DNA of 64,000 nt from positions 1,590 through 65,589 of the forward strand of contig CAYUKQ010000002.1 of assembly GCA_964445355.1 (NCBI GenBank), written 5' to 3'. Source of the stretch: an uncultured Gammaproteobacteria bacterium (GTDB taxonomy: Bacteria > Patescibacteriota > Microgenomatia > CAYQLK01). The position numbers and the translations under genes are program-made. Below are positions 1 through 55,301 of the stretch, piece after piece. How positions within the stretch are numbered: position 1 is the stretch's first letter; each line of letters starts with the position of its first letter. The notes beneath the pieces were generated by a model. That model searched no databases and was not told the DNA's origin. It was given only the letters and a program-made list of their open reading frames with translations.

Positions 1-1314
1 ACTATTTTTTTTATTTTATTACTTACTTTTAGTATTTTATTTGCTATAGAAAATCCCATAACAAAAATAATTTACACCAACCATATTCCATTTTTATCTT
101 CAGCCCAGCCAAGTAGACTAATATTTATTACAATATTTTCGCTAAGCACTTTAGCTGCGGTCGGTTTAGATAACTTTTTAAAACACCGTGAGTCCAAAAA
201 AATAACAATATTCAGTTTTTTGCTTATTCTGACCTTTATCTTAGTCGTATTTGTAATTCTCAAATTTAATTTCAAAATTTATAACCCAAGTGATTTAGTT
301 AAAGATTATACGACTGCTACAAGAAATTTAATATTACCTGTTATCTTAATCATATTTTTAATTGGATTAATTTTATTTTCGTATTTTAAGTTGGCGCCCA
401 AAAAAATTGTTGCTTTATTAATTTCGATTTTGGCAATTGGAGAATTATTGTTTTACTTTTTTAGACTTATCCCGTTATCAGATACACCAATGTTTTACCC
501 TAGCACAAAAATTACTGAATTTCTAAAACATGATGAAGGCGTATTTCGAGTCGCTACTACTGACGACAGAATTTTTCCGCCAAATATATCTGGGGTCTAT
601 GGTATTCAGTCTCCAGAGGGTTACGATCCGCTTTTCCCGAAAAATTATGCTGACTTTGTAAGCATGATTGAGACCGGTAAAAACGAACAAATCAGATTTA
701 ATAGAATATTACGGCCAAAAAATATTGATTCAAATTTATATAGTCTTTTGAATGTTAAATATATTTTAAGTTTTGATTCCAAGTTACACGATCAGTCACC
801 AATTTTTTCTGAAGGGTTAACGAATGTTTTTATTAATAAGAATTACAACGAAAGAGCGTTTATTGTTTACAAAGCCATTTCTGCTACGGATGAAAATGAT
901 TCTAAAAATAAGTTATTGAACAAAAATTTCAAACCCAACCTTGAAGCGGTAGTTTTTGGACTCGAGGACAAAATCTACAATACAAATCAAGGTAATAGTA
1001 TTAAACCAAAGGTTTTGGTCGATGCTTATTCACCAAATATTATCAAGCTTAAAGTTAAAAGTTCAAGTAGTGGAATTTTAATTCTGACCGATAATTATTT
1101 TCCTGGTTGGCGCGCAAAAGTTAACGGAGTCGAATCACGAATTTTTCGAGCCAACCACACATTTCGTGGGGTTGAAGTACCAAACGGTGAAAGTCAGGTA
1201 GATTTTTATTACGAGCCCGGCTCTTTTAAGGTTGGAGTAATAATAGCATTATTTTCTTTACTAGGCATAATGATAATATTACTTAAGTACAAAAAATATG
1301 AGTCCAAAAATTAG
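1..1314 (+). CDS. YfhO-like GT-C membrane glycosyltransferase, 5'-truncated at window edge (frame 1 is open from nt 1)
   Basis: No stop in frame 1 from position 1. The protein is hydrophobic and multi-TM. The C-terminal segment '...YFPGWRAKVNGVESRIFRANHTFRGVEVPNGESQVDFYYEP...' matches the conserved YfhO C-terminal domain. Confidence 0.55.
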   Translation, partial: TIFFILLLTFSILFAIENPITKIIYTNHIPFLSSAQPSRLIFITIFSLSTLAAVGLDNFLKHRESKKITIFSFLLILTFILVVFVILKFNFKIYNPSDLVKDYTTATRNLILPVILIIFLIGLILFSYFKLAPKKIVALLISILAIGELLFYFFRLIPLSDTPMFYPSTKITEFLKHDEGVFRVATTDDRIFPPNISGVYGIQSPEGYDPLFPKNYADFVSMIETGKNEQIRFNRILRPKNIDSNLYSLLNVKYILSFDSKLHDQSPIFSEGLTNVFINKNYNERAFIVYKAISATDENDSKNKLLNKNFKPNLEAVVFGLEDKIYNTNQGNSIKPKVLVDAYSPNIIKLKVKSSSSGILILTDNYFPGWRAKVNGVESRIFRANHTFRGVEVPNGESQVDFYYEPGSFKVGVIIALFSLLGIMIILLKYKKYESKN

Positions 1315-2227
1315 CGTTGTTATTCCAAACTACAACGGAATCAGTTTATTAAAAAAAAACTTACCTGGAATTGTTAAAAACTTTCCTGACTCTCAAATAA
1401 TTGTATCTGATGATTGTTCTCACGACAAAAGTGTTGACTGGATAAAGCAAAATTTCCCGCAAGTTGACGTTACGGTTCATAGGCAAAATTTGGGATTTTC
1501 TTCGACTGCAAACGACGGAGTAAAACTTGCCAGCGGAAAGGTTATTGTTTTATTAAATACCGATGTCTCGGTTAAAAAAAATTATTCTAAAGAAATACTT
1601 CACTATTTTCACGATAAAAATTTATTTGGTATTGGATTTCAAGACCTAAGCTATGAATCCGGGAAAGTTGTGCGAAGGGGAAGAGGGGGTGGAGAATTTA
1701 AAAAAGGACTCTTAAGTCATTACAAGGGTAGTAATTCACATGGAGCAACTCTTTGGGTCTCTGGCGGAAGTTGTGCGATAAACAGGGAAAAATTTAACAG
1801 ATTGGGAGGGTTTAATACAATTTTTAACCCATTTTATTGGGAAGATATTGATTTATCTTATCGGGCACTTAAATCTGGATGGAACATTTTGTTCACGCCT
1901 GAAATTGAAGTTGATCACTACCACGATACGGGTTCGATAAGAACAAATAATTCAAAATTGCGGATTAATCAAATTGCCCAGAGAAATATGTTTATCTTTT
2001 CGGCCAAAAACGTTACAGACTTAAATATATTAATACAATTTTATATTTATATTTTTATCTTATTTATCAAATCATTAATAAAATCAGATTATTCGACAAA
2101 CAAATCCATATTGCAATTTGCACTAAAAATTTTCAAAATTATTCGCTTAAGAAATATTGAAAAAAAACGTTATAAATTGACTGATAAAGAAATAATAAAA
2201 TATTTTGGTAATGCTCAAGAAAATTAA
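1298..2227 (+). CDS. GT2-family glycosyltransferase with C-terminal hydrophobic tail
   Basis: N-terminus 'ISVVIPNYNG...IIVSDDCSHDKS...' is a GT-A/GT2 Rossmann start with a DXD-type acidic motif. Its start overlaps the preceding gene by 17 nt. Confidence 0.75.
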   Translation: MSPKISVVIPNYNGISLLKKNLPGIVKNFPDSQIIVSDDCSHDKSVDWIKQNFPQVDVTVHRQNLGFSSTANDGVKLASGKVIVLLNTDVSVKKNYSKEILHYFHDKNLFGIGFQDLSYESGKVVRRGRGGGEFKKGLLSHYKGSNSHGATLWVSGGSCAINREKFNRLGGFNTIFNPFYWEDIDLSYRALKSGWNILFTPEIEVDHYHDTGSIRTNNSKLRINQIAQRNMFIFSAKNVTDLNILIQFYIYIFILFIKSLIKSDYSTNKSILQFALKIFKIIRLRNIEKKRYKLTDKEIIKYFGNAQEN

Positions 2228-3848
2228 AAAAATATTACCTTTATTATTGATTGTTCTGTTTGGCGCGCTCATTAGGTTGAATGGATTCGGCGAAACCCCC
2301 AAATCAATGAATTGGGACGAAGTTTCCACCTCGTACAATGCTTGGTCGATTATTCAGACAGGGAGAGATGAGTATGGTGATTTGCTGCCGATGGTTTTTA
2401 GATCTTTTGATGATTACAAGGTTCCGTTGTATGTGTATTTAACAATACCGATTGTACTAATTTTTGGCCCTATTGATTACGTGGTTAGGATTCCAAATCT
2501 AATTCTAGGCACACTAAGTATATTAGGTATTTTTTTACTTAGTCGCAGATTATTTGAAAATAAGAACATTGCACTATTATCAGCACTGATTTTTGCAACC
2601 ATACCTTGGAGCATTCATTTTTCTCGTGTTGGATTTGAAGCAAACAGTCTTATTTTTTTTACTATCTTTGGGTGGTATTTTTTTGAAAAATTTCGAAAAC
2701 TTGATGGCAAATGGTTAATTCTATCAATCACCTTCTTTTTTATTAGCCTTTATTCTTACCATTCAGCCAAACTAATAATTCCTCTCTTTGTATTAATTCT
2801 GTGTATTTCTGAGGCTAAAAAAATTCTTGGTTTGAATAAAAATATTAAGATATTATTGATAGTAATATCAATTGCTATTTTATCTCCATTAGTATACTCA
2901 ACTTTTTTTTCAGGAGCTCAAAATAGGTTTGAAGCAACTACAATTTTTTCTAAAAAAAATTTAGATGAACAAGATCCTTTAAGGAGGCTTACAGATATAG
3001 AGTCAGGTGATTCGATATCCGGTAAAATTTACCACAATACTGCCTATTACCAAATTGAAAATTTAGTAAAAAACTATTTTTCTCACTACACGTCCAATTT
3101 TTTGTTATTTACTCAAGATAATCCACGGCACCACGCAACACGAACAGGGTTGTTGCTATTCGCACAAATTATTGTGTTAATTATTGGCTTATTTACCATA
3201 TATGGAAAAAGGTATAAAAATGGTAATAAAATTTCAACGCTATCGCTTTTTCTGATCAGCCCATTGGCTTCAGCAATAACAATAGAATCCCCACACGCAA
3301 TTAGATCCTCATTAATTGTGATTCCGATAACACTTTTTTGTAGTCTAGGTGTCTACCGACTTTATACATTTTCGAAGTCGTACTTGTACACCCCATTAAT
3401 CGTATTTGTGATTTTATATATTTTTAATTTCTATTTTTTTCTTCATCAATACTATGCACATTACAATTACGAATCTGCTGAGTACTGGCAATACGGTCGA
3501 AAAGAGGCGGCATTATTTACCAAAAGTATTGAAAATAATTACGATGAGGTTTGGGTATCTAACGCCATAGAGCAAGCATATATTTATTGGTTGTTTTATC
3601 AACAAATTTCTCCTGATAAATATATTTTGACCGGAGGTACAAAAGCTGGATATCAAGGATTTAATGGAAATAGCTATGGTAAATACAAATTTTTAAATAT
3701 AGATCCAAAAAAAATTCAGTCGGATAAAAAGATTCTTCTTGTAGGATTAAAAGATGAATTTCCAATAAAACCAATTAAGCAGATTAAACTACCATCTGGT
3801 TCGGTCATTATCGACATTACTGATAATACACAATATGTCCAAAATTAA
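2205..3848 (+). CDS. GT-C glycosyltransferase, PMT_2/ArnT-like (polyprenyl-phosphate-sugar dependent)
   Basis: Twelve or more TM helices. The first extracytoplasmic loop carries a 'WDEVS...RDEYGDLLP' acidic motif typical of GT39/GT83 ArnT/PMT enzymes. Size 547 aa. Confidence 0.65.
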   Translation: MVMLKKIKKILPLLLIVLFGALIRLNGFGETPKSMNWDEVSTSYNAWSIIQTGRDEYGDLLPMVFRSFDDYKVPLYVYLTIPIVLIFGPIDYVVRIPNLILGTLSILGIFLLSRRLFENKNIALLSALIFATIPWSIHFSRVGFEANSLIFFTIFGWYFFEKFRKLDGKWLILSITFFFISLYSYHSAKLIIPLFVLILCISEAKKILGLNKNIKILLIVISIAILSPLVYSTFFSGAQNRFEATTIFSKKNLDEQDPLRRLTDIESGDSISGKIYHNTAYYQIENLVKNYFSHYTSNFLLFTQDNPRHHATRTGLLLFAQIIVLIIGLFTIYGKRYKNGNKISTLSLFLISPLASAITIESPHAIRSSLIVIPITLFCSLGVYRLYTFSKSYLYTPLIVFVILYIFNFYFFLHQYYAHYNYESAEYWQYGRKEAALFTKSIENNYDEVWVSNAIEQAYIYWLFYQQISPDKYILTGGTKAGYQGFNGNSYGKYKFLNIDPKKIQSDKKILLVGLKDEFPIKPIKQIKLPSGSVIIDITDNTQYVQN

Positions 3849-5481
3849 TTACTTTTTTAAACATAAGATAATAATATCAATTGTTTTTTTAGGATTGATA
3901 TTGCGTTTGGTTAGAATTTTTGACACCCCGCCGTCCTTGTACTGGGACGAAGTTTCGATTGGTTATAATAGCTATACTTTATCGCAGACATTTCGAGACG
4001 AACATGGTCAACTATTGCCAATAGAGGCGTTTACGGCATATGGGGATTATAAAGCTCCATTGTATATTTATTTAACCGCACCAATTGTCAAACTATTCAG
4101 TCTAAATTATCTAAGTGTCAGAGCAGTTTCAATTATTTCAGGTACTTTATTAATTTTTTTGGTTTTTTTAATTTCTAAAGAACTTTTCCCTAAAAATAAA
4201 CAAATTCCAGTATTTTCGTCGATTTTTATTGCAATTTCCCCTTGGAGTATCCAAATCTCCAGAGCAGCATTTGAAGCAAATTTAGGTGTTACATTGGGTT
4301 CTGCGGCGACGCTTATTTTTCTTAAGTCGTATAAAAATCCAAAATTTTTTTTTCTGTCAACAATACTATTTGTCCTCTCGATGTATAGCTTTAACGGCAC
4401 AAGGTACTTCTTACCATTTTGGATCGTTGGATTAGTATTTTGGTCGTACTTAAAAAATAAACACAAATTTATCAAGACAAAACACTTATTTCTGTCTAGT
4501 CTTATTGGTTTTATGATGATAATCCCATTAATAAGATTCGGATTAACTAATTCGGGACAACTGCGATATAACGAGGTAAATATTTTTTCAGACCCCAAGC
4601 CTGTACTAGAGTCAAACAGGCTACAAGAGGAGAATGGGTATTCACTGCTATCAAAAGTAATTTACAATCGCAGAGTTTTTCATGCCAAGAACTACATAAA
4701 GCACTATTTTGACAACTTCTCGTATAAGTATTTATTTGTAAGTGGAGACATTAATCCAAGATTTTCTTCTCAGCTAACTGGTCAGTTGTATATTATTGAG
4801 CTGATTCTTTTACCACTGGGTGTATATTTCGTATTTAAAAAAAATAGAAAAATATTTTATTTTCTATTTTTATGGGTTGTCATTTCGCCGGTTGCTGCAA
4901 GCGTAGCCAGGGAAACACCACATGCATTAAGAACTCTTCAGATGTTGCCCGCATTATCAATATTAAGTGCAAGCGGAATTGCCTATCTGGTAAATAAACA
5001 AAATAACAAAAAATTAAGGTGGGGGGCGTTATTTATTATTTTTTCAATGCTTGGGTTTCAATTTCTATTTTTCATTTCCAACTACTTTTTTAATTACTCA
5101 GCAAAATATGCGGACGACTGGCAGGATGGATATGCTCAATTGAACACGATACTAAGTAATCGGGAGTATGAAAACAAAAAAATTCTTATTACGGATCATT
5201 ATGGAAGAGCATATGCAAATATACTCTATTATCAAAAGTTTTCGCTTGATACGTATTTATCCACAAGAGATGCGTTTTCTGAGCCTTCAGGGCTTTGGAC
5301 AGTAAAAGGCTTTGGAAATTACAGTTTTAAACCTTCTGTTTCATGTGCAGATGCGTCAATTGCAGATTACATAATTGGTACACCCGACGATTTCGCTAAT
5401 ATTAAATTACAAAATGTTATTTTCAATAGTTTTGGCAAGCCGAAGTTTGTTATCATTAATTCCAATGAGTGTAAAAAATAA
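3835..5481 (+). CDS. GT-C glycosyltransferase, PMT_2/ArnT-like; tandem paralog of the previous gene
   Basis: Same architecture and a near-identical loop motif ('YWDEVSIGYNSYTL...RDEHGQLLP'). It overlaps the upstream paralog by 14 nt. Confidence 0.65.
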   Translation: MSKINYFFKHKIIISIVFLGLILRLVRIFDTPPSLYWDEVSIGYNSYTLSQTFRDEHGQLLPIEAFTAYGDYKAPLYIYLTAPIVKLFSLNYLSVRAVSIISGTLLIFLVFLISKELFPKNKQIPVFSSIFIAISPWSIQISRAAFEANLGVTLGSAATLIFLKSYKNPKFFFLSTILFVLSMYSFNGTRYFLPFWIVGLVFWSYLKNKHKFIKTKHLFLSSLIGFMMIIPLIRFGLTNSGQLRYNEVNIFSDPKPVLESNRLQEENGYSLLSKVIYNRRVFHAKNYIKHYFDNFSYKYLFVSGDINPRFSSQLTGQLYIIELILLPLGVYFVFKKNRKIFYFLFLWVVISPVAASVARETPHALRTLQMLPALSILSASGIAYLVNKQNNKKLRWGALFIIFSMLGFQFLFFISNYFFNYSAKYADDWQDGYAQLNTILSNREYENKKILITDHYGRAYANILYYQKFSLDTYLSTRDAFSEPSGLWTVKGFGNYSFKPSVSCADASIADYIIGTPDDFANIKLQNVIFNSFGKPKFVIINSNECKK

Positions 5482-6286
5482 TCAAACAAAAATTTCAGTC
5501 GCCATAGCCACCTTTAATGAGGAAAAAAACATTCGTTTTTGCCTCGACTCAATAAAAGGTTGGGCAGATGAAATAATAATTTTTGACGGATCTTCAACTG
5601 ATAAAACTGTAGAAATTGCCCGCGGCATGGGTGCAAAAGTGTTTATTGTTGATAATCCTCCCCATTTTCATACAAATAAACAAAAAGCCATAGATAAATG
5701 CAAGAATAATTGGATTTTTCAACTTGATGCAGATGAGGAATTGACCAGCAACTTAAAGGAAGAAATTATTCAAATAATTTCTGATCCAAACAATAAATTC
5801 CACGGCTATTATGTTCCGAGGAGGAATTATTTTTTAGCACATTGGATGAAAAAAACTGCTAACTACCCTGATCCAGTAATTAGACTATTCAAAAGAGGTT
5901 TTGCGAAAGTACCCGTAAAAAACACCCATGAACAAATTGAGATAGAGGGACAGGTGGGATGGCTAAAAAACGATATGCTTCACTACGGTGATGTTAGCTT
6001 TACAAGATATTTAATAAGAGCAAACCGTTACAGTACTATGGATGCTCGATACCTAAAACAGGACAAGGTTAATATATCACTTGGATTTTCGATCAAATAT
6101 CTTTTTCTTTATCCGATAAAAACATTTTTACTTCTATACGTCAGACACCAAGGTTTTCGTGATGGTATGGCCGGGTTTGCCTTTTCTTTGTATTCATCAA
6201 TACATTTTATTAATACGTATTTAAAATATTATGAATCAGCGAATCAAAATATTGATCGATCAGAGCCGCTTGATTACTGGGCATAA
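5465..6286 (+). CDS. GT2 polyprenyl-phosphate sugar synthase-like (GtrB/Ppm1/ArnC-like)
   Basis: GT2 start 'ISVAIATFNEEKNI...' followed by C-terminal TM helices, the GtrB/DPM1 layout. The start was chosen at the internal ATG at 5465 (MSVKNN...), because the track ORF from 5375 would overlap the upstream gene by about 100 nt. Confidence 0.55.
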   Translation: MSVKNNQTKISVAIATFNEEKNIRFCLDSIKGWADEIIIFDGSSTDKTVEIARGMGAKVFIVDNPPHFHTNKQKAIDKCKNNWIFQLDADEELTSNLKEEIIQIISDPNNKFHGYYVPRRNYFLAHWMKKTANYPDPVIRLFKRGFAKVPVKNTHEQIEIEGQVGWLKNDMLHYGDVSFTRYLIRANRYSTMDARYLKQDKVNISLGFSIKYLFLYPIKTFLLLYVRHQGFRDGMAGFAFSLYSSIHFINTYLKYYESANQNIDRSEPLDYWA

Positions 6287-7250
6287 AGCAAGAGGGTCAG
6301 GTACATATATAAATAACCTGATCAATTCACTTAGTGAGAATCGTGGTATTAAGCTAGTTGAGAACTATTCATCTAATCCTGATGTTGTTCATTTCCCATA
6401 TTTTGATCCATTTTTTTTAACTTTACCTAAAAAAATTTCCCCTCCGACCGTTATCACGGTGCATGATTTAATACCGATAGATTATCCAAAAATATTTCCT
6501 AAAGGTATTAAAGGTTGGTTAAGGTGGAAGATACAAAAAAGAAATTTACAGAATGCTGATGCGATCATTACTGATAGTATTTACTGCAGGCAGCGTATTC
6601 AGGATATTACTGGTATTGATAGTAAAAAAATTCATGTAATTCCACTGGCCGCAGATCCACAATTCAAACAGCTAAAAAATCAGACCTTAGATGAAATCAA
6701 AAAAAAGTATTCCTTACCTGAAAAATTCGTTCTATATGTCGGAGATGTTAACCCAAATAAAAACGTTAAAAGGCTTATTTTGGCTTCAAAAGATTTTAAA
6801 TTTAAGTTGTATTTAGCAGGGCGGGCATTTGGAGCGGAATCTGCAGAAGTAAAAGATATTAAGGCACTCGTCGAAAACAGCAATAATTGTTCGATCATTG
6901 GTGAAATTGAATCAAGTAATGACTTAGTCGCGATTTATAATCTAGCTCATCTTACTGTGGTTCCATCTTGGGAGGAGGGTTTTGGTTTCCCAATATTAGA
7001 ATCTATGGCTTGTGGTACGCCTGTAGCAACTTCTAACAGATCATGTTTGCCTGAGGTCGGTAGAGAGGCTGCAAAATATTTTGATCCTTATTCAGTTGAT
7101 GACATTGCAAGGACAGTAAATAAAATTTGTGTACTCTCTCAAAAAAAATATTCAGAATTAAAAAACAAATCGATTAATAATAGTAAAAAATTCACTTGGA
7201 AGAAAACTGCAAAATTAACCATTGATGTATACACACAGCTTAAAGATTAA
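6231..7250 (+). CDS. GT4-family glycosyltransferase
   Basis: GT-B fold with the C-terminal 'EGFGFPILESMACGTPV' E-x7-E motif. Confidence 0.75.
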   Translation: MNQRIKILIDQSRLITGHKARGSGTYINNLINSLSENRGIKLVENYSSNPDVVHFPYFDPFFLTLPKKISPPTVITVHDLIPIDYPKIFPKGIKGWLRWKIQKRNLQNADAIITDSIYCRQRIQDITGIDSKKIHVIPLAADPQFKQLKNQTLDEIKKKYSLPEKFVLYVGDVNPNKNVKRLILASKDFKFKLYLAGRAFGAESAEVKDIKALVENSNNCSIIGEIESSNDLVAIYNLAHLTVVPSWEEGFGFPILESMACGTPVATSNRSCLPEVGREAAKYFDPYSVDDIARTVNKICVLSQKKYSELKNKSINNSKKFTWKKTAKLTIDVYTQLKD

Positions 7251-8367
7251 AAAAAATGTTGACAAATATCGCTTTGTCATTCTGACTTTTCTAGTCTGGA
7301 AAATTACTTTGTCAGTATTTGGACTAATCATTATCCAATTTGTTGATTATCACCCTACCTTTCCCTACTACGAATCGTTAAAATCAAAGTATGATTTTTT
7401 ATACCTTTTTATATGGGGAGGTTTTGATGGCGTTCACTATTTAGACATTGCGCAAGATGGTTATACTAAACAGTTTACACAAGCTTTTTTCCCTTTCTAC
7501 CCATTATTAATTAGTTTTTTTTCATTCGGTTTTATTCCAAAATTGGTTGTAGGTATTTTAATTAACAATCTTGGATTATTTGTGGGGCTAATTTTTTTAC
7601 AGAATATAATCCAAAATAATTTTAAAAAAATTGATTATCGTTTTGTTATTTTGATATTTCTAGCATATCCTTTCTCCTTTTTCTTTAACGCTGTGTACAA
7701 TGAGGGAATATTTTTCGCACTTATATTAATTTGTTTTCAGTCTTATCAGTACAGAAGGACGTTAATGATGATATTAACTGGAATATTTGCTTGCACCACA
7801 AGATTGGCTGGAATATATCTAATTCCCTCACTTGCTGTTTTTACATTATTAGATCAAAAAAGAAAAAAAACTAGTTCGTTAATGGCAATTAGCTTTATAT
7901 CTTTTGGATTGATTATCTACATGATTTATCTGGAAATTAAATTTGGTGATTACCTATATTTCATTACTTCACAAAACTATTTTGGGAACGCAAGGAGTAG
8001 TGATTTAGTGCTATTGCCACAGGTAATTTATCGGTATATAAAAATTATACTAAGTATTTCAGTTACCAGTAATGCGTTTATCATTGCAATAACAGAATTT
8101 TTTGTTGCAATCGTATTTCTTATTTTACCGATAATTTTTCACAAAAAAATTCCAATCGGATATATTATTTTTTCATTATTAGTTGTAATTGTTCCCTCGC
8201 TAACTGGCACTTTTGGATCAATGCCAAGATACGCCCTAATGTCATTTCCAGTTTTTATATTAATTGGCTTTTTAAGTCAAAAATATAAAATGTTACTGAT
8301 TACCGTATTTGTAATTTTGCAATTATACTTTCTTTCATTATTTATCTCCGGCACGTTCGTATCATAA
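7222..8367 (+). CDS. PIG-V/Gpi18-like (GT76-like) GT-C mannosyltransferase family membrane protein
   Basis: Multi-TM protein. The motif 'FDGVHYLDIAQDGY...AFFPFYPLLI' resembles the conserved PIG-V/Mannosyl_trans2 signature. It has a paralog at 52504-53565. Confidence 0.5.
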   Translation: MMYTHSLKIKKNVDKYRFVILTFLVWKITLSVFGLIIIQFVDYHPTFPYYESLKSKYDFLYLFIWGGFDGVHYLDIAQDGYTKQFTQAFFPFYPLLISFFSFGFIPKLVVGILINNLGLFVGLIFLQNIIQNNFKKIDYRFVILIFLAYPFSFFFNAVYNEGIFFALILICFQSYQYRRTLMMILTGIFACTTRLAGIYLIPSLAVFTLLDQKRKKTSSLMAISFISFGLIIYMIYLEIKFGDYLYFITSQNYFGNARSSDLVLLPQVIYRYIKIILSISVTSNAFIIAITEFFVAIVFLILPIIFHKKIPIGYIIFSLLVVIVPSLTGTFGSMPRYALMSFPVFILIGFLSQKYKMLLITVFVILQLYFLSLFISGTFVS

Positions 8368-9803
8368 TGAAAAATCATAAAAAAATAATTGCAATATTAA
8401 TTCTAGCAGCTGTAATTCGTTTGCTCGGCCTTAATCAGAGCTTGTGGCATGATGAGGCAATCGCTGCTCAAACAGTAATAAATTTTAGTATAAAAGAGTA
8501 TTTTACGAATTTTTTACCAGGTGATTTTCACCCACCGATATATTTTTTTATACAGAAAATATTTTATTTTATCTTTGGTAGCTCCGAATTTTCCTTTAGG
8601 CTTCCAGCCTTACTTTCTGGTGTGCTAACTGTCTATTTTGTTTATTTGATTTCAATAATTACCATCCAAAATAAAAAATACATTTTTTGGCCGACAATAC
8701 TTTGTGCTCTCTCTCCAATATTAATTCAATATTCGTTTGAAGCCAGACCATATTCACTTACTACACTCGTTGTCACGATTAATATTTATCTTTTGTTAAG
8801 AATAAAAAATAAATTTTCAAAATTAACATTTATTACTTACCTTACTAGTTGTGTTGTTTTAATTTATTTAAATTATTTATCATATTTTTATTTGATTATT
8901 TCTTCAGCATTTATGATAAATATTTTAATCAGACAAAAAGAAATTTTTAAAAAGTCAACTATTTTTTTTAGTCTAATAGCAATTACCATATCTAGTGGAA
9001 TTGCTCCAATCTTAAATCAGCAGCTGGCAGTAGGTTTCGGAATTTCTGACACAGCTTCTGGGTGGCAAAAAATAATTGGTAGCCAAAATATTTTTAAAAA
9101 TATCGTTCAATTTTGCATCAAAATTATTTCAGGTCACGTAGACTTTGATTACTCAAAATTGTCAATTTTTATTTCCGGCATTGGTGCAATATTACTTTTA
9201 ACTATCTTGATGCTCTCGCTAATTAAACGTGGTAAAGAGTTTTTTTTGACCGCTATTTTTTTAATGGTTCTTTTACTGATTCAAATAGTATCAATGACGA
9301 TTCCAATATATTCCTATTTTAGGTTGTTATATTTAGTGCCACTAATTTTAATTTCAATTTCTGTTGCTATTCAACATTATTCTAGGGCAAGGTACGTATT
9401 TTATTATTTTTTTATTAGTAGTTTGATTTTTAATTTTATGTATTTTTTAAATCCAGTCTTTTGGCGCGAGAATTGGAAAGGGGCTGCCGAATATACCAAA
9501 TATTTAACAGCTAATTATCAAAACAGTATTGTTGTTTTTCCAACGGCAATTCCATATGAGGCATATTCATACTATAATCATTCGCCGGCCATAGGAATAG
9601 GAAAGGACTTTATTGTTACTCAATTAACACAAGAACAAGAATTAGAATTAAAAAAATATCAATATTTAATTGTTTACGACTATTTGGCACAGCTAACCGA
9701 TCCAAAGGGAATTACAAAAAACTTTCTTAATAATAATTATAATGAGTTGACCGGATATAGTTTTAATAAAATAGGGAGCATTAGGTTATACAGTCTGAAA
9801 TGA
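8367..9803 (+). CDS. GT-C glycosyltransferase, PMT_2/ArnT-like
   Basis: Multi-TM protein of 478 aa with an N-terminal loop 'LWHDEAIAAQT' and the ArnT-like topology. Confidence 0.6.
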   Translation: MKNHKKIIAILILAAVIRLLGLNQSLWHDEAIAAQTVINFSIKEYFTNFLPGDFHPPIYFFIQKIFYFIFGSSEFSFRLPALLSGVLTVYFVYLISIITIQNKKYIFWPTILCALSPILIQYSFEARPYSLTTLVVTINIYLLLRIKNKFSKLTFITYLTSCVVLIYLNYLSYFYLIISSAFMINILIRQKEIFKKSTIFFSLIAITISSGIAPILNQQLAVGFGISDTASGWQKIIGSQNIFKNIVQFCIKIISGHVDFDYSKLSIFISGIGAILLLTILMLSLIKRGKEFFLTAIFLMVLLLIQIVSMTIPIYSYFRLLYLVPLILISISVAIQHYSRARYVFYYFFISSLIFNFMYFLNPVFWRENWKGAAEYTKYLTANYQNSIVVFPTAIPYEAYSYYNHSPAIGIGKDFIVTQLTQEQELELKKYQYLIVYDYLAQLTDPKGITKNFLNNNYNELTGYSFNKIGSIRLYSLK

Positions 9804-19790: not shown

Positions 19791-20847
19791 TCCAATTACT
19801 CAAAACGGTGGAGCTGAAAAACTGTTGTGGTCCCTGGCTGATAGCTTGCCCATCGGTTCAGTTTTTACGGCCGTCGCCAATCCAGAAATTGTCCCAAAAA
19901 AATTATTACCAAGGATAATAACCTCTTGGATTCAAAATCTTCCGCTTGCCTACAAAAATCCTAAACCATACTTACCGTTTTTTCCATTAGCATACGAATC
20001 GTTTGATTTTAGTGATTTTGACTGTGTTATTTCGATTACGACTTTATTCGCGAAGGCTGTAATTACTCAGCCACACACACTTCATATTGGATATATCAAC
20101 TCCCCTCCGAGATTCCTATACTCCAAAAAAAACTTAGAGAAATACATCAACTCTCAATCTTTTGGATTAGCTCTTAATCCATTTTTTAACTGGTTAAAAA
20201 AATATGATCAAATCGCAACTAGACGTCCAGACATCTTAATAGCAAATTCCCATAACATTCAGCGTAAAATCCGCGACATTTATCATCTCGACAGTCAAGT
20301 AGTTTACCCGTTTGCTGATGATTTTTATTTTTCCTATGGATCAAAAACAGATCGATTAGATAATTTTGTGCTGGTTTCTAGACTTGAAAGATGGAAAAAC
20401 ATTGACTATGTCATCGAGGCTTTTAACCATCTGCCAGGAAAAAAATTAATTGTTGTCGGGGTTGGCAGTGATGGTAATCGTCTAAGGAAAAAAGCTGCTT
20501 CAAATATTTCCTTCACAGGCTGGATTGATTCTGCTTCTGTGGCCAAAATTGTTTCTAGTTCACAGGCCTTGATAATGCCACAGAATGAAGACTTCGGAAT
20601 TACATCAATCGAAGCACAAGCACTCCGAACGCCGGTGATCGCATTTGGTCAAGGTGGGGCAGTTGAAACGGTGATAAACAACCAGACAGGTATACTTTTT
20701 CCATCGCAAACCGTTGATTCGCTTACCCAAGCAGTTAACTCATTTACTCAAAAGAATTTCAGCGCTGACAAACTTTATCAAAATGCGCTAAAATACCGCG
20801 AGAAAGACTTTATTCAAAATATTTCAAAAATTATCTATGGGAAGTGA
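19768..20847 (+). CDS. GT4-family glycosyltransferase
   Basis: 'MKIALVFDPITQNGGAEKLL' GT4 N-terminus. Overlaps its neighbor by 23 nt. Confidence 0.7.
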   Translation: MKIALVFDPITQNGGAEKLLWSLADSLPIGSVFTAVANPEIVPKKLLPRIITSWIQNLPLAYKNPKPYLPFFPLAYESFDFSDFDCVISITTLFAKAVITQPHTLHIGYINSPPRFLYSKKNLEKYINSQSFGLALNPFFNWLKKYDQIATRRPDILIANSHNIQRKIRDIYHLDSQVVYPFADDFYFSYGSKTDRLDNFVLVSRLERWKNIDYVIEAFNHLPGKKLIVVGVGSDGNRLRKKAASNISFTGWIDSASVAKIVSSSQALIMPQNEDFGITSIEAQALRTPVIAFGQGGAVETVINNQTGILFPSQTVDSLTQAVNSFTQKNFSADKLYQNALKYREKDFIQNISKIIYGK

Positions 20848-21940
20848 TCAGTCGGTTAAAATAGCAATTTTTTGCGGGGGAAGTGGCTCAAGAATGTGGC
20901 CCGCATCTCGTTCTGACAAACCAAAACAGTTCCAGCCATTAATTGGAGGCAAAAGCACGTTTGAAAAATTAGTTGTGATTTTGGAAAAAGAGTTTGGCTC
21001 CGCAAATATTTTCCCTGTTGCCAGAAGAGAATTTGTTGGTCATATTGTTTCTCAGGCGCCTCATATTCCCCTAGAGAACATCATTATCGAGCCTGAAGGG
21101 CGAGACACAATGGCCGCCATTGGATTTGCAGCAATGGTTCTTGATACAAAATTCAATAATCCAACTGTAATTAGTCTTTGGAGTGATCATCTGATAAAAA
21201 ATGAGACAAACTTTCTTAAATCTTTGAGAAAGGCAGCAAAGGTCAGTGCAAATACATCCAAAATTGTCGAGTTGGGTGTTCGTGCAACATTTCCGAGCAC
21301 TCAGTTAGGCTATATAAAAATCGGCAAAATGCTAGAAAAGGAGGATGGTCTTGGCTTGTTCGAGTTTATTGCTCAGATTGAGAAGCCTAACCTTGAAAAG
21401 GCACAGGAATTCTTGGAATCATGGGAATATTTATGGCACCTAGGTTATTCAGTCTGGAATACGAAAACCCTGCTTGGTTATTATGAACAATTTGCTCCGA
21501 CAACTTACAAAACGCTACAAAAAATTTCTCAGCTAATTTTGAGCGGTGATAATTCAAGTAAAAGTATTAAGGATTTATTCTCTACGATCGACAAAACGTC
21601 GATTGATTATGCAATTTACGAAAAGCTAGGGGCTACCGATCGTTTAGTAATCTCTGCTGATCTGGGTTGGAGTGATGTCGGCACATGGGATGTATTAAAA
21701 GATGAGTTAAGCAAAAAACCAGAAGATAATGTCTCAACAAATAATTCAATCACTGTCGAATCAAGTGATACGCTACTATTCTCGACTAATCAGCGAAAAA
21801 TGCTGGTTGCCGTGGGAGTAAAAGGTGTAGTCGTCGTCGACACAGACGACGCTATACTTGTCGTATCCAAAGACAACAGCGGAAAAGTTAAGGACGCTGT
21901 GGTAAAACTTAAAGAAGAAGGGCATGAAGACTATCTTTAA
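20837..21940 (+). CDS. Mannose-1-phosphate guanylyltransferase-like (ManC-type NTP transferase, no PMI domain)
   Basis: 'IAIFCGGSGSRMWPASRSDKPKQF' is the nucleotidyltransferase G-loop of ManC/GMP family enzymes. At 367 aa it lacks the C-terminal cupin/PMI domain. Confidence 0.7.
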   Translation: MGSDQSVKIAIFCGGSGSRMWPASRSDKPKQFQPLIGGKSTFEKLVVILEKEFGSANIFPVARREFVGHIVSQAPHIPLENIIIEPEGRDTMAAIGFAAMVLDTKFNNPTVISLWSDHLIKNETNFLKSLRKAAKVSANTSKIVELGVRATFPSTQLGYIKIGKMLEKEDGLGLFEFIAQIEKPNLEKAQEFLESWEYLWHLGYSVWNTKTLLGYYEQFAPTTYKTLQKISQLILSGDNSSKSIKDLFSTIDKTSIDYAIYEKLGATDRLVISADLGWSDVGTWDVLKDELSKKPEDNVSTNNSITVESSDTLLFSTNQRKMLVAVGVKGVVVVDTDDAILVVSKDNSGKVKDAVVKLKEEGHEDYL

Positions 21941-21943: not shown

Positions 21944-22582
21944 ATGTTATACGATTTTTTAAAACGTACTCTAGACATCATCGGCTCACTGTTCGGTATC
22001 ATAATTTTAGGTTTAATATTTCCATTTATTGCTGTAGCTGTTAAGCAATCAAGCCCTGGCCCAATTTTCGCCGATGTTCCCAAGCGAAGTGGAAAAGATG
22101 GTAAATCTTTCAAGATGTACAAATTCAGATCAATGATAAAAGATGCGCATTTGTTGTTGCAAAGCGATCCTAAGTTCAAAAAATTATACGAAGAATATAA
22201 AAAAAATTCGTACAAGCTCTCACACGATCCTCGGGTTACACCAGTTGGACATTTTATCCGGAAAACCAGTATTGATGAACTACCTCAATTCATTAATGTC
22301 CTAAAGGGTGAAATGAGTCTAGTTGGTCCGAGGGCGTATTATCCCGATGAGTTAATCAATCAACAAAAAGCTTACCCTGAGACAAAGAAATACGTCAAAA
22401 CCTTACTCACAGCCAAACCTGGACTGACTGGTCCATGGCAGGTATCAGGGCGCAGTGATATTTCTTTTGAAAAGCGAGTTAAGCTTGATGCATCCTATGC
22501 AAAAAAAAGATCAATCCTGTATGATTTAAAGATCATTATTCTCACGATTCCTGCCCTATTGTCTCAGAAAGGTGCAGTCTAG
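21944..22582 (+). CDS. Polyprenyl-phosphate sugar-1-phosphate transferase, small PglC/WbaP-C-terminal type (initiating enzyme)
   Basis: One N-terminal TM helix, then 'KMYKFRSM...' and '...IDELPQFINVLKGEMSLVGPRA', the bacterial sugar transferase signature. Confidence 0.8.
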   Translation: MLYDFLKRTLDIIGSLFGIIILGLIFPFIAVAVKQSSPGPIFADVPKRSGKDGKSFKMYKFRSMIKDAHLLLQSDPKFKKLYEEYKKNSYKLSHDPRVTPVGHFIRKTSIDELPQFINVLKGEMSLVGPRAYYPDELINQQKAYPETKKYVKTLLTAKPGLTGPWQVSGRSDISFEKRVKLDASYAKKRSILYDLKIIILTIPALLSQKGAV

Positions 22583-39103: not shown

Positions 39104-39961
39104 ATGAAGTATTCCTCCCGGCATCATCGCATTAAACGACCGCGCCAGCCGTTTAAAATTTCTAAAAAAAAGCTAATCACTGTTACTCTAATTTTCTTTG
39201 TTACCCCGTTTATTTACTGGTTAGTCTTTCACAGTGCATTATTCAAAATTCAAAAAACCGAATTTGCAACTCCAGCTAATTTTAATTGCTTAAATACTTC
39301 CCAGCTATCTCAATTCGACCGCACGGGTAAGTCGATATTCTTCTTCAACACTTCTCAACTTGAGGAAGAGCTTAAGCAAAATAGTTGTATCGAAGAAGTA
39401 TTTGTAGAATTAAATCCCAAGAGAGTACTTAAAATCTCTTTCACATTAGCTCGTCCAATGGCAGAGATTTACGTTAATCCAAAACTCCAGGATGTATATA
39501 AGGTTGCAACATCGAGTATTGACCTTCGGTCATCGACTGTTTCCGCAATCCTAAAACCCACATCATTAATCGATACAAATAAAAACCTCAATTCGAGATC
39601 ACTTACTCAGGTTAGGGTTGCGTCCGATAGCTCGCTACCAAAACTTTTTTTAGGTGAGGATCAAAAAAGTAATCAGGATTTTAGCAAGTTTCAAATAATA
39701 CCAGTCCTTAATTGTCTAAGTGAAAACCTAATTCAATCAATTTATTTTACCGTAATCAACCAGCGTCTTGTTGTCTACAATCTTAATGTAAACAACGGAT
39801 TTACAACACTTGATGCAAAATTGCTTGTCAATCCAGAAATGCTTCCTCAAAACTTTTGTCTAACTTTGCAAGAAATAATTCAAAAAAGTACAATAGATGG
39901 TATCAAACTAGATTCAATTGACCTTAGGTTTAAAGATCCTGTTGTAAACATATTAAAATAA
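39104..39961 (+). CDS. ftsQ: Cell division protein FtsQ/DivIB-like
   Basis: Bitopic: a basic N-terminus, one TM helix, then an extracytoplasmic domain. It lies immediately upstream of ftsA. Confidence 0.45.
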   Translation: MKYSSRHHRIKRPRQPFKISKKKLITVTLIFFVTPFIYWLVFHSALFKIQKTEFATPANFNCLNTSQLSQFDRTGKSIFFFNTSQLEEELKQNSCIEEVFVELNPKRVLKISFTLARPMAEIYVNPKLQDVYKVATSSIDLRSSTVSAILKPTSLIDTNKNLNSRSLTQVRVASDSSLPKLFLGEDQKSNQDFSKFQIIPVLNCLSENLIQSIYFTVINQRLVVYNLNVNNGFTTLDAKLLVNPEMLPQNFCLTLQEIIQKSTIDGIKLDSIDLRFKDPVVNILK

Positions 39962-50470: not shown

Positions 50471-51346
50471 ATGATTAACACGCTTTCATTTTTACTCGTT
50501 ACCTACAACAACCCCAAAGATACACTTAAGTGTATTGAATCGATTCGTCAGCAGTCACAAAAAATCAGATCGATAAAAGTCGAGATATTTGTTTATGATA
50601 ATTCAATCGTTTTAACTAAGTATCCTCAAAATGTTACCGTCTTTAGTTCTGGAAAAAATATCGGATTTGCAGCCGCGTGTAATTATCTAGCCCAAAAAGC
50701 ATCAAAATATTCAGATATTTTCGTATTTATTAATAATGACACCAAGCTCATGCCAAACTTTATAAGTAATCTAATAAAACTTGTCCCTGAAATATTACAA
50801 AATACTGCAGTCTGTCCTCAAATCTTCAACCCGGATGGGTCGGTCTGGTTCTCTCAGGGTACTGTTAAAAAACTTATTACACGGCCCGAAACCAGTCAGA
50901 AAAAAATCACCTCACCCATCACAAGTCAGTTTTTGACTGGTTGTTGTATTATCATTTCCAAAAAAAACTGGATCGATTCTGGGGGTTTTGATGAAAAATA
51001 CTTCCTTTACTATGAAGATGTCGATTGGTCGCTGAGGGTAAGCAATATACTCAATCTTGTCGTCCATCCCAAGCTTGAGCTGATTCATTATCCGCACTCT
51101 TCTTCCGGTGGTCCAAATGGGGCCACTCAAAGCTATTTTCAGACAAGGAATAATCTTTATTTGGCCAAAAAACAAGGTCAGCTTGGTTTTAGCATTTTTT
51201 ACGTTGCATTACTTTCTGTTAAGCGAATCATTAATCTTTTGTTCCGGCCATACCCAGACAAAAAAAAGGTGATTAAGATGATATTGTTTGCTTGGAAAGA
51301 TTTTATTTTTTCTAATTATGAACAAGGAAGTTTTATTAAAAAATAA
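50471..51346 (+). CDS. GT2-family glycosyltransferase
   Basis: 'LSFLLVTYNNPKDTLKCIESI' GT2 N-terminus, with a C-terminal hydrophobic tail. Confidence 0.7.
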   Translation: MINTLSFLLVTYNNPKDTLKCIESIRQQSQKIRSIKVEIFVYDNSIVLTKYPQNVTVFSSGKNIGFAAACNYLAQKASKYSDIFVFINNDTKLMPNFISNLIKLVPEILQNTAVCPQIFNPDGSVWFSQGTVKKLITRPETSQKKITSPITSQFLTGCCIIISKKNWIDSGGFDEKYFLYYEDVDWSLRVSNILNLVVHPKLELIHYPHSSSGGPNGATQSYFQTRNNLYLAKKQGQLGFSIFYVALLSVKRIINLLFRPYPDKKKVIKMILFAWKDFIFSNYEQGSFIKK

Positions 51347-52517
51347 CATTGTTTTGCTTAATAATTTTTTCTTAATATTTAGTTTGAGCCTGCTCATTTT
51401 GGGTGAATTACCAAGACTGTCTGTTCCTGGGTTTGGAAGCTTCAGAATGATTGACCTGACAATCCTTGTGTCTGTAATTTCCAGCTTGATTATTTCTCCA
51501 AAGAATTTTTTTTCATCAATATTTGTTCGACTAATACTCTGCTTCAGCGCATTCAACACCCTACTTTTATTTTTTAATTATTTCCGCTTTGGCATCGAAG
51601 AATTAGTTGGTATTACGCACTTTCTTCGGTTAGTAATGTTTCTCTTGCTTTACCCAAGTATCGTTCTGTTTATTAATCGATATTCCAAGAAAAAATTATT
51701 AAATTTTTTAGTCGTGGTTTCTGCAATTACTGCCTCGATTGGTTTGGTTCAATTAGTTGTGGTTCCGGATATCGGATTTTTATCACAGTACGGATGGGAT
51801 CCGCACCGCAACCGGGTTGTGTCAACCTGGCTTGATCCCAACTTTTTATCTTCATTCTTAATTATCCCTCTAGCTATTGTGATCAGTTCATTAGATAAAA
51901 ACATCAGATCCAGCAGTAAAAAACTCGGACAGCTAGGTATGCTTGCAATAATTACCATAGCAGCATTATTAACCTTGTCCAGATCCGGACTAATGATATT
52001 TGGAGTATTTTTTGTTCTTATTGGCGTGAGGTATTATCAAAAATTAATGATTTTATTATTTATATCGTTAGCTGTCGTCATTATGCTTTACACTCCTGCC
52101 AGACAGAGAATTACTGGCATTATCAATCCTGACATTACTGCCAGTGCGAGACTAATCTCTTGGTCCGAGTCATTAACAATCGGTATCGAAAACACCCTTA
52201 AGCCTATTGGATATAATAATTACTCGATTTATAAAAATAATTCAATCTATATTGAACAAAAAAATTCATCATTCGGGGCAGATTCATCTATTCTATTAAT
52301 CTTTTCAACAACGGGAATTATTGGTACGATATTGTTTATTGCACCATTTTTTTACTCAATAATTAGATCCTTGAGATCAAAAAGGAAAGAGTATTGTATT
52401 TTATCTGCGAGCCTAGCTTCGTTGATAATTGGTTCCAATTTTAATAATTTATTGCTATATTCACTCATTATTCCTGCCTATTTGATAATTATGGCGGCAA
52501 TTAATGAAGAAAATTAA
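51318..52517 (+). CDS. O-antigen ligase/Wzy-like membrane protein
   Basis: Ten or more TM helices and a periplasmic loop with 'RLISWSESL...GYNNYS'. The start was chosen at ATG 51318. Confidence 0.5.
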   Translation: MNKEVLLKNNIVLLNNFFLIFSLSLLILGELPRLSVPGFGSFRMIDLTILVSVISSLIISPKNFFSSIFVRLILCFSAFNTLLLFFNYFRFGIEELVGITHFLRLVMFLLLYPSIVLFINRYSKKKLLNFLVVVSAITASIGLVQLVVVPDIGFLSQYGWDPHRNRVVSTWLDPNFLSSFLIIPLAIVISSLDKNIRSSSKKLGQLGMLAIITIAALLTLSRSGLMIFGVFFVLIGVRYYQKLMILLFISLAVVIMLYTPARQRITGIINPDITASARLISWSESLTIGIENTLKPIGYNNYSIYKNNSIYIEQKNSSFGADSSILLIFSTTGIIGTILFIAPFFYSIIRSLRSKRKEYCILSASLASLIIGSNFNNLLLYSLIIPAYLIIMAAINEEN

Positions 52518-53565
52518 TCACATTTTTTTTATCTGGCTACTGTCGCTGTACCTGGTCGGGATATTGGTTTATTTATTCTTCGAATTCAATCGCAACGGGG
52601 GAGTTTTTTTTGAGTTTGCCCAAGAGCCTTCACTAACCAAATACTTTTCCATATTCGCTCAATGGGACGGAGGCAATTATTTATCGATTAGCAAGTATGG
52701 GTATATTCACCAGTATTTTTTTGCCTACTTTCCTCTATATCCGGCCATTATTGGCTTATTTGGATTTGTAATTTCACCAATAATTGCAGGGATTACAACC
52801 AGTATTTTTTGTACAGTGTTTTTTATTCAATTCTGGATTCAATACTGCAAAAATATTTACCGTCTCGATCAGATCGACAATCTGATTTTGGCAATAATTC
52901 TTTTTCCCTCAAGCTTTATTCTTGTTTGTGTTTACCCCGAAAGTCTGTTTTTACTGTTAAGTGTTGTTTCTTCATATCTTTTTTTTGTTAAAAAACAATA
53001 TTTTCCTGCGGTAATTTTTGCTTCACTGGCATCAATTACAAGGGTGCATGGATTAATTTTCCTTTTCTTATTAAATTGCAACCTAATGCTTAAAAAAGAG
53101 CTTAATCGGGTTCAAAAAGTATTATTAGTTAGTATTTCCGTAATTCCATTTTCGATTTGGATGCAATCTCAATTCGTTTATACAGGAAACCCATTTAACT
53201 TTCTTTCCTCACAAACTCATTGGCAAAGATTTAATTTACCAAAATTAACCATTCAATTTGACTACATTGGAATTATTACTTTAATCAATAGCACTCTGAT
53301 CCTTGTTGTTTTTTTTCTGATAGCAAAGCATATCAGTAAGCTTAAAAAATTCGATCGATTGTATTTGATCCTATCGATTGCAATGCCAATTTTGACAGGG
53401 AGTTTAGATAGTGTGCCAAGATATTTACTTTCCAGCTATCCGATCTATCTAATTTTATTTTACTCAATGCAAAAGTCTAAATTACGGAACTTAATAATGG
53501 GTGGATTTATTTTGCTTCAATCGTTTTACTTAAGCTTATTTCTGGCAGGATACTGGACTTTCTAA
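52504..53565 (+). CDS. PIG-V/Gpi18-like GT-C membrane protein (paralog of 7222-8367)
   Basis: 'WDGGNYLSISKYGYIHQYFFAYFPLYPAII' matches the motif of the first paralog. The C-terminus 'PRYLLSSYPIYL' parallels 'PRYALMSFPVFI'. Confidence 0.5.
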   Translation: MKKINHIFFIWLLSLYLVGILVYLFFEFNRNGGVFFEFAQEPSLTKYFSIFAQWDGGNYLSISKYGYIHQYFFAYFPLYPAIIGLFGFVISPIIAGITTSIFCTVFFIQFWIQYCKNIYRLDQIDNLILAIILFPSSFILVCVYPESLFLLLSVVSSYLFFVKKQYFPAVIFASLASITRVHGLIFLFLLNCNLMLKKELNRVQKVLLVSISVIPFSIWMQSQFVYTGNPFNFLSSQTHWQRFNLPKLTIQFDYIGIITLINSTLILVVFFLIAKHISKLKKFDRLYLILSIAMPILTGSLDSVPRYLLSSYPIYLILFYSMQKSKLRNLIMGGFILLQSFYLSLFLAGYWTF

Positions 53566-54308: not shown

Positions 54309-54374
54309 CTATCAAAAATTATACCTTATTTTTTGCTATAAGCTCTTTATGTATCCTTCAAACTATTCATGGTT

Positions 54375-54446
54375 AGATAATCTGAGCCGAAGGTGGGAAT
54401 CGAACCCACGACCTACTGTTTACGAAACAGCCGCTCTACCACTGAG
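54375..54446 (-). tRNA. tRNA-Thr (anticodon CGU)
   Basis: The reverse complement folds as a cloverleaf: acceptor GCCGAAG/CTTCGGC, D-arm GCTC-AGTGGTA-GAGC, anticodon arm GCTGT-TTCGTAA-ACAGT, T-arm GTGGG-TTCGATT-CCCAC. CCA is not encoded. Confidence 0.8.
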
Positions 54447-54546
54447 CCACTTCGGCACTCCAATTTTAAATTCTGGCCTCAATATAAGGCAGAACCACCC
54501 CTTAGCTAGCTACCGCCAAATAATCCTCTCAGGGGCTAGATTATAA

Positions 54547-55272: not shown

Positions 55273-55301
55273 CTAGTAATCGCTGTGTATATCCAAAAAA
55301 T

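Follow-up and report, generated by a model that had tools for sequence, protein, structure and literature searches.

PIG-V/Gpi18, the eukaryotic mannosyltransferase II of glycosylphosphatidylinositol (GPI) synthesis (CAZy family GT76), is an 11-helix membrane protein with its N-terminus inside and its C-terminus outside, and has the 1-6-4 helix layout proposed for PIG-V and most GT-C glycosyltransferases (PMC6801728). A D/E-x-E acidic pair lies between its transmembrane helices TM1 and TM2 (PMC6056205). In solved GT-C enzymes an Asp of the first loop is the catalytic base (Asp39 of Gpi14, Asp69 of ALG6), and the N-terminal module (TM1-7) is conserved across GT-C enzymes while the C-terminal module varies (PMC12653191). 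Among bacterial systems, two invite comparison: PimE (GT87), a small GT-C enzyme dependent on polyprenyl-phosphate-mannose in the synthesis of mycobacterial phosphatidylinositol mannosides (PIM), and the three-component systems of GtrA, GtrB and a GT-C enzyme such as GtrC, ArnT or YfhO. Here we describe two open reading frames (ORFs), ORF A and ORF B, in a 64,000-nucleotide stretch (the window) of contig CAYUKQ010000002.1, from an uncultured bacterium that GTDB places in the Microgenomatia of the Patescibacteriota. They most likely encode catalytically competent GT-C membrane glycosyltransferases related to PIG-V/Gpi18, in the neighborhood of Pfam family PF04188. We give a probability of roughly 80% that each uses a polyprenyl-phosphate-linked sugar and acts on an envelope glycoconjugate outside the cytoplasmic membrane.

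The relationship to PIG-V was assessed with hhalign, comparing a 30-sequence alignment of ORF A relatives (A1) with an alignment of 14 authentic vertebrate PIG-V sequences (A2), named "GPI mannosyltransferase 2" in the database from which they were retrieved. The bait for A2, a human PIG-V sequence 97% identical to a Mandrillus cluster representative, served for retrieval alone, and every comparison was made with the sequences so retrieved. A1 and A2 align with 98.4% probability (E 5.2e-15) over 187 columns, residues 20-204 of ORF A falling on residues 13-214 of human PIG-V. In this alignment the first-loop segment of ORF A, FDGVHYLDIAQDGYTKQFTQAFFPFYP, falls on the motif segment of human PIG-V, with 13 of 27 residues identical, and the two families have in common the loop pattern (W/F)D..H(F/Y)L.IA..GY......AFFP..P. 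Two further segments correspond: P149...Y158-x-E160..F163 of ORF A lies on P159...Y168-x-E170..F173 of PIG-V, and R193..G196 on R203..G206. Four PMT_2 families encoded in the window, equally hydrophobic, served as a control; against these the A1 profile gave E-values of 1.3e-6, 0.010, 0.014 and 0.26, which are 8 to 14 orders of magnitude worse than the value against PIG-V. Because these controls score so far below PIG-V, the relationship is specific rather than a by-product of hydrophobic composition.

As judged from sequence, then, ORF A and ORF B are distant relatives of PIG-V, with homology limited to the N-terminal half, an extent that fits the GT-C pattern of a conserved N-terminal and a variable C-terminal module. 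They differ from the eukaryotic enzyme in several respects. The bacterial proteins have 353-381 residues, compared with 493 for PIG-V; no surrounding GPI pathway genes accompany them, and no other GPI-pathway family is found among the proteins of the 64 kb seen. They would reside in the plasma membrane and probably use carriers of the bactoprenol rather than the dolichol type. Where PIG-V has D-x-E, ORF A has D-G-V and ORF B D-G-G, so that the second acid is missing; across 386 bacterial relatives the Glu position is occupied by V in 237, G in 53, E in 19 and I in 18.

ORF A was listed, in the original prediction, as starting at TTG 7222. The reading frame is real, but a database protein 99% identical to it and all of its homologs begin one codon later, at ATG 7225, and ORF A is for that reason best read as 7225-8367. 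The pairing of this gene with a paralog at 52504-53565, which the same prediction proposed, is borne out by BLASTP, which aligns the two along their full length (28% identity over about 367 columns, E 7e-25). The motif described for the pair stands in its core, DG..YL.I...GY..Q....[FY]FP.YP, which in a six-frame scan of the whole window matches ORF A and ORF B only. The spacing first given was slightly off, since in ORF A the gap from GY to Q is five residues long rather than three. The fit of ORF B to that earlier pattern was only loose: H is replaced by N, A by S, Q by F and AFFP by AYFP. Conservation among the 386 bacterial relatives indicates that the first-loop motif is far from a chance resemblance. 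Both genes overlap neighboring genes: ORF A overlaps the gene upstream by 26 nt and the gene downstream by 1 nt, and ORF B overlaps its upstream neighbor by 14 nt. The GC content of both regions is about 31-33%.

Structure prediction, proposed from the start as a check, gave confident AlphaFold2 models, built on alignments, with a predicted local distance difference test (pLDDT) score of 89.9 and a predicted template modelling (pTM) score of 0.91 for ORF A, and 91.0 and 0.92 for ORF B. In Foldseek searches against a PDB set that contained no PIG-V structure, the confident matches were exclusively GT-C proteins: STT3, AftB, ArnT, AglB, Gpi14 (GPI mannosyltransferase I) and Pmt4, together with ALG9, ALG12, ALG3, PIG-U, PglB and PimE. 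Model secondary structure combined with hydropathy gives 11 transmembrane helices per protein. Lys and Arg account for 15 of the 45 residues in predicted inside loops, against 8 of the 124 in outside loops, and because of this concentration the N-terminus is placed inside and the C-terminus outside. The first outer loop (EL1) has 66 residues and the fourth (EL4) 42, and the predicted topology reproduces the 1-6-4 layout.

Conservation among the bacterial relatives is nearly absolute at a handful of positions. Asp68 of ORF A, equivalent to Asp55 of ORF B, is kept in 385 of 386, Pro90 (the Pro of FFP) in 386 of 386, the Tyr of GY in 382 of 386 and Glu160 in 383 of 386; Gly196 is found in 386 of 388 and Arg335 in 385 of 385. 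The residues conserved above 99%, namely Asp68, Pro90, Glu160, Gly196 and Arg335, all lie on the predicted outer face. In topology, first-loop acid and fold, ORF A and ORF B show the traits of the GT-C superfamily (Pfam clan CL0111).

Searches of family databases place the relatives of the two proteins more readily than the proteins themselves. PF04188 is matched by 22 of the 30 members of A1 (best E 7e-15). Scores of relatives against this model are 29-45 bits, always over model positions from about 20 to 206 of 443. Besides PF04188 the only family found was PMT_2, matched weakly by five of the 30 (1.4e-5), and no member matched the Pfam models for GT87 or GT22. The best 120 relatives of ORF A, 34-69% identical to it, come mostly from metagenome-assembled genomes (MAGs) of Curtiss-, Gottesman-, Woese- and Daviesbacteria; most have a precomputed PF04188 match, and they carry names such as "Gpi18-like mannosyltransferase" (JGI) and "mannosyltransferase family protein" (NCBI PGAP). 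Relatives of ORF B are likewise assigned to PF04188 or named mannosyltransferases, and include a RefSeq protein of a cultured Aneurinibacillus as well as proteins of Thermoleophilia, all of them more distant members. ORF A and ORF B belong with these named proteins, from which they show no difference in kind. Among NCBIfam models the sole match, below threshold, is that of ORF A to NF046093 (AZOBR_p60025 family cell surface glycopolymer formation protein), with model positions 27-227 of 232 aligned to residues 33-225 of ORF A (E 8e-8). The two have the same N-terminal module and the same presumed role in envelope glycans, but a score of 31.7 bits against a cut-off of 150 keeps ORF A outside that family; ORF B does not match the model. 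A sequence-profile search of the PDB returned spurious matches alone, to RGS-domain and procathepsin entries.

In some relatives the family domain forms the C-terminal part of a longer protein (P0156, 980 aa; P0161, 946 aa; P0200, 1033 aa; P0171, 606 aa). The idea that such proteins are GT2-GT4-PIG-V fusions was rejected, as they proved to combine a PTPS_related domain with the PIG-V-like domain or to contain no extra domain at all. The N-terminal part of P0156 is a PTPS_related membrane domain, which belongs to another GT-C family. The composition of these long members suggests tandem GT-C fusions or merged gene calls.

Bacterial members had been described as rare and uncharacterized. Rare they are not: an exhaustive hidden Markov model (HMM) search of 1.84 billion cluster representatives (50% identity) found 19,663 at E<=1e-3, 14,111 at E<=1e-10 and 5,033 at E<=1e-30; two short peptide patterns alone retrieve 319 loci from GTDB species representatives, and NCBI and JGI already name the family. 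With so many bacterial members on record and already annotated, ORF A and ORF B are ordinary additions to the family, and their assignment refines annotation rather than revealing a new kind of system. The counts confirm a large bacterial membership for the PIG-V branch of GT-C, which bears on the origin of the GPI mannosyltransferases.

Several results weigh against reading the two proteins as PIG-V-related, lipid-phosphate-sugar-dependent enzymes. Direct scans gave no Pfam match for either ORF even at E<=1, the PMT_2 (GT39-GT83) models PF13231 and PF02366 included, and neither reaches the PF04188 gathering cut-off of 22.4 bits, the sequences being too divergent; the Pfam search proposed with the original prediction was thus negative for PF04188 in the ORFs themselves, positive in most of their relatives and, for GT87/DUF2029, negative throughout A1. 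The C-terminal halves have no detectable similarity to PIG-V by hhalign (E 0.47, probability 0.1%). What survives of the PIG-V/Gpi18 signature originally claimed is therefore a specific N-terminal relationship, motif on motif, lacking both the C-terminal half and the second acid. Solved GT-C enzymes are matched only weakly by the models, the best E-value being 1.7e-3 and the template modelling (TM) scores 0.37-0.52. The window contains no gene for a polyprenyl-phosphate-sugar synthase or for a GtrA-type flippase. The literature searched held no experimental paper on a bacterial PIG-V/Gpi18-like member, in keeping with the description of the family as uncharacterized, and nothing relevant on COG5542, AZOBR_p60025 or mannosyltransferases of Patescibacteria.

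By analogy with solved GT-C enzymes, the invariant first-loop Asp, positioned at the start of a short helix, would activate an acceptor hydroxyl, which would then attack C1 of a polyprenyl-phosphate-linked monosaccharide in a membrane-embedded site. Glu160, Arg193 and Arg335, invariant and outward-facing, are candidate ligands for the sugar or phosphate. With such an Asp and such a donor, the GT-C analogy would place sugar addition to the envelope glycoconjugate on the external side of the cytoplasmic membrane. Candidate acceptors are lipid-linked glycans, lipoglycans and surface proteins, whose synthesis would have begun in the cytoplasm with the GT2 and GT4 enzymes that these operons encode. 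The same chemistry and membrane side are predicted for the three-component systems, and a Mesorhizobium member of the family, described below, does lie beside GtrA- and GtrB-type genes. The window differs from those systems in encoding neither GtrA nor GtrB; its conserved partner genes encode PMT_2 paralogs together with a GT4 and a GT2 of the GmaR/SunS-like type.

ORF A is part of a very large co-directional cluster of envelope-glycan genes on the forward strand, from position 220 to about 24518 (Table 1). The order begins with a YfhO-like gene, a GT2 gene, two PMT_2 genes, the GT2 and GT4 genes immediately preceding ORF A, ORF A itself and a further PMT_2 gene. It continues with two GT4 genes and genes for a hexapeptide acyltransferase, a GT2, a Wzy_C protein, a PMT_2 protein, a GT4, a GT2 and two more GT4 enzymes, and ends with a ManC-like gene, a Bac_transf gene and a gene for a DUF4012 protein. 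The cluster thus encodes six GT-C-type proteins (YfhO-like, starting at 220; PMT_2 at 2205, 3835, 8367 and 15055; and PIG-V-like at 7225), one Wzy_C protein, six GT4 and four GT2 enzymes, with no recognizable Wzx, GtrA or GtrB gene between 220 and 24518. A scan for promoters and terminators returned fewer sites than shuffled controls, an indication of tight gene packing only. The YfhO-like ORF (220-1314, forward strand, 364 aa) matches just the last 90 or so of 835 YfhO model positions and has three N-terminal helices and one C-terminal helix. The same piece occurs in the related loci L001 and L002; it could represent a YfhO-like protein that is simply short, or the end of a split gene whose start precedes the window.

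Table 1. Positions of ORF A, ORF B and associated features in the window, and of the Mesorhizobium locus used for comparison.
Feature	Coordinates	Strand	Remarks
ORF A	7225..8367	+	PIG-V/Gpi18-like GT-C membrane glycosyltransferase (most likely), 380 aa; alternative start TTG 7222
ORF A motif, first extracytoplasmic loop, FDGVHYLDIAQDGYTKQFTQAFFPFYP	7423..7503	+	aa 67-93; putative catalytic Asp68 at 7426-7428
ORF B	52504..53565	+	Paralog of ORF A, same family, 353 aa
ORF B motif, first loop, WDGGNYLSISKYGYIHQYFFAYFPLYP	52663..52743	+	aa 54-80; Asp55 at 52666-52668
Tandem PMT_2-type GT-C glycosyltransferases	2205-3848, 3835-5481	+	Conserved upstream part of module
GT2 glycosyltransferase	5465..6286	+	Two genes upstream of ORF A, conserved partner; GmaR/SunS-like
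GT4 (GT-B fold) glycosyltransferase	6231..7250	+	Conserved partner directly upstream of ORF A
PMT_2-type GT-C glycosyltransferase	8367..9803	+	Directly downstream of ORF A; kept only in closest relatives
ManC-like mannose-1-phosphate guanylyltransferase	20837-21940	+	Within the co-directional glycan cluster that holds ORF A
Bac_transf initiating phosphoglycosyl transferase	21944-22582	+	Same cluster as the ManC-like gene
GT2, rhamnosyltransferase-like	50471-51346	+	Three-gene module with Wzy_C and ORF B
Wzy_C-family membrane protein	51288-52517	+	Three-gene module with GT2 and ORF B
tRNA genes	Thr-cgt 54384-54456, Gly-ccc 55302-55375, Asp-gtc 56201-56276	-	Rfam
Small membrane-anchored or secreted protein genes	Ig-like 53586-54308, C39-like peptidase 54547-55272, LysM 55461-56108	-
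Mesorhizobium ciceri pMESCI01 locus	L089 7746-11738 = NC_014918.1 91512-95504		Family member WP_013525081.1, annotated "hypothetical protein"

Gene order around ORF A was compared across 80 related loci (L001-L080) from species-representative genomes, of which 73 were informative. An order of one to four PMT_2 genes, the ortholog of the GT2 gene at 5465, the ortholog of the GT4 gene at 6231 and the PIG-V-like gene is kept in about 64-69 of the 73, with genes that usually overlap or abut; in about 15 loci an extra gene of about 1.5-1.9 kb stands between the GT4 gene and the PIG-V-like gene. The closest genomes, those of L001, L002 and L003 (CAYQLK01, CAYOLO01 and CAYROP01), encode proteins 52-54% identical to ORF A, and the first two have the same 14-gene order as the window. 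These three are titled "uncultured Gammaproteobacteria bacterium", whereas Patescibacteria make up most of the remaining relatives with informative names; the label is apparently erroneous or a placeholder. The conservation of the PMT_2 – GT2 – GT4 – ORF A order across Microgenomates is what is new here, a modest novelty. Few Patescibacteria have been cultured, and next to nothing is known about the chemistry of their cell surface. Conservation of the four-part module across Microgenomates makes the PIG-V-like gene a sensible target for defining the envelope glycans of the group.

The chemistry could be more specific than we propose: both ORFs may be polyprenyl-phosphate-mannose-dependent alpha-mannosyltransferases that correspond in function to GPI mannosyltransferase II, with GDP-mannose from ManC passed through a Ppm-type synthase. 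The closest characterized relative, PIG-V, is an alpha-1,6-mannosyltransferase using dolichol-phosphate-mannose, mannosyltransferase is the name databases give the family, and the cluster does contain a ManC-like GDP-mannose pyrophosphorylase gene, the GMP domain of which scores 241 bits against TIGR01479 (the cut-off for the bifunctional enzyme is 373). The gene is real, but the description of ORF A as lying beside ManC was an overstatement, as 12.5 kb separates them, and the product could be used by any GT4 enzyme of the cluster, all six of which could take GDP-mannose directly. The adjacent Ppm-like GT2 of the original prediction is not there. The GT2 enzyme in question, two genes upstream of ORF A, is closest to the protein/peptide glycosyltransferases GmaR (E 1e-14) and SunS, and the other GT2 enzymes of the window are of chondroitin-synthase, GalT1 or rhamnosyltransferase types; none of the five resembles DPMS (DPM1), Ppm, GtrB or ArnC, and none has the paired C-terminal helices of GtrB. 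Tblastn with the Mesorhizobium GtrB-like and GtrA-like proteins likewise found nothing in the 64 kb. A donor synthase would therefore be encoded elsewhere in the genome or have diverged beyond recognition. With ManC distant and no Ppm-like GT2, neither gene strengthens the mannosyltransferase assignment as had been argued, and mannose is left to rest on the family name only.

A more distant member of the family gives the only informative context for the donor. This full-length protein, encoded on plasmid pMESCI01 of Mesorhizobium ciceri, matches A1 with 99.5% probability (E 1e-22) over 301 columns, and its gene adjoins a GtrA-family gene, an S-adenosylmethionine (SAM) methyltransferase gene and a GT2 gene of the GtrB type, whose product matches Synechocystis GtrB (5EKP) with 277 bits and ArnC with 132 bits. 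On this rhizobial plasmid the genes together form a three-component set for periplasmic glycosylation, of the classical type. The arrangement lends independent support, from gene context, to a lipid-phosphate-sugar donor and fits the general mechanism proposed above. It also argues against taking mannose for granted, the archetype of GtrB being a maker of undecaprenyl-phosphate glucose. In two Patescibacteria loci a GtrB-like gene lies about 3 kb downstream; of the 80 related loci, only two have a full-length GtrB-like gene. Members in Aneurinibacillus and in a Thermoleophilia MAG are orphan genes or adjoin DUF2142, contexts that are uninformative. The absence of the second acid of D-x-E in 95% of bacterial members also counts against strict equivalence to PIG-V, as does the unrelated C-terminal module, that being the variable module in GT-C enzymes (PMC12653191). 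A dedicated pair of mannosyltransferases therefore seems to us a doubtful, though possible, specialization, and mannose no better than a tentative choice of transferred sugar.

A broader idea, and an unlikely one in our estimate, is that the PMT_2(n) – GT2 – GT4 – PIG-V-like operon of Microgenomates encodes a pathway for a membrane-anchored glycolipid or lipoglycan like that for mycobacterial PIM and lipomannan (LM) or for the GPI core. The GT4 and GT2 enzymes would act on a lipid in the cytoplasm, the lipid would be flipped, and the PIG-V-type enzyme would extend it outside with a polyprenyl-phosphate sugar. The bacterial family would then represent the prokaryotic stock of GPI mannosyltransferase II. 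Irrespective of that idea, PimE is comparable to the two proteins as a small GT-C enzyme of bacteria: it lengthens a glycolipid outside the membrane once GT4 enzymes in the cytoplasm have done their part, and the PimE structure 9dm5 is among the matches of ORF B, weakly (E 1.2, TM 0.43). PimE differs in family, since none of the 30 aligned members matches the GT87 Pfam model.

Still less probable is a non-catalytic role, in which ORF A and ORF B would be GT-C-fold scaffolds or substrate presenters like PIG-U, or polymerase or ligase accessory factors of the neighboring Wzy_C proteins. PIG-U has the same fold and appears among the structural matches, and ORF B does overlap a Wzy_C gene. PIG-U, however, lacks the first-loop acidic motif (SSW in place of DxD; PMC12653191), while the Asp is kept here in all but one of 386 relatives; invariant Glu and Arg are retained on the same face, and the homology detected is to catalytic PIG-V, not PIG-U. 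That the PIG-V likeness might stem merely from hydrophobic membrane-protein composition and a short motif shared by chance, as the missing direct Pfam matches and an alignment over half of the protein could imply, is effectively refuted by the PIG-V profile match (E 5e-15), by invariant residues in three segments (D/H/L/I/A/G/Y/AFFP/P; P...Y.E..F; R..G), by the PMT_2 controls with their E-values 8 to 14 orders of magnitude worse, and by PF04188 scores of relatives that exceed the gathering score. Catalytic, PIG-V-related GT-C glycosyltransferases thus remain the most likely identity of both proteins.

ORF B stands in a three-gene module of its own. The GT2 – Wzy_C – ORF B order, together with flanking genes, recurs in one related MAG at 43% protein identity. 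The window as a whole is heavily committed to extracytoplasmic glycosylation, with six GT-C enzymes accompanied by two Wzy_C proteins and a dozen glycosyltransferases of the cytoplasm.

Between the ORF A cluster and the ORF B module lies a complete dcw-type block (27579-48235, forward strand), with mraZ, mraW, DivIC-like, ftsI, murE-like, murB-like (weak) and murF-like genes, then mraY, murD, ftsW, murG, an unassigned gene for a 285-residue protein (39104-39961) at the place expected for ftsQ, ftsA and ftsZ; pyrG, ileS and a second SEDS gene (rodA) follow. With a complete block of this type, the organism evidently makes peptidoglycan. GC content rises from about 32% at the left end of the window to 43-49% at 56000-64000, where the genes encode a PolX-type polymerase with a PHP domain (57091), LemA (58888), an alpha/beta hydrolase (59601) and a 464-residue protein belonging to no family (61793). 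The hydrolase has a sub-threshold PGAP1-like match (21.9 against 24.3 bits), too weak a resemblance for a link to GPI biology. An Rfam scan of the window identified three tRNAs only. On the reverse strand, at 53586-56276, these three tRNA genes are interleaved with three small genes whose products are anchored in the membrane or secreted, and in a related genome a giant fn3-repeat protein is encoded two genes past the Ig-like gene.

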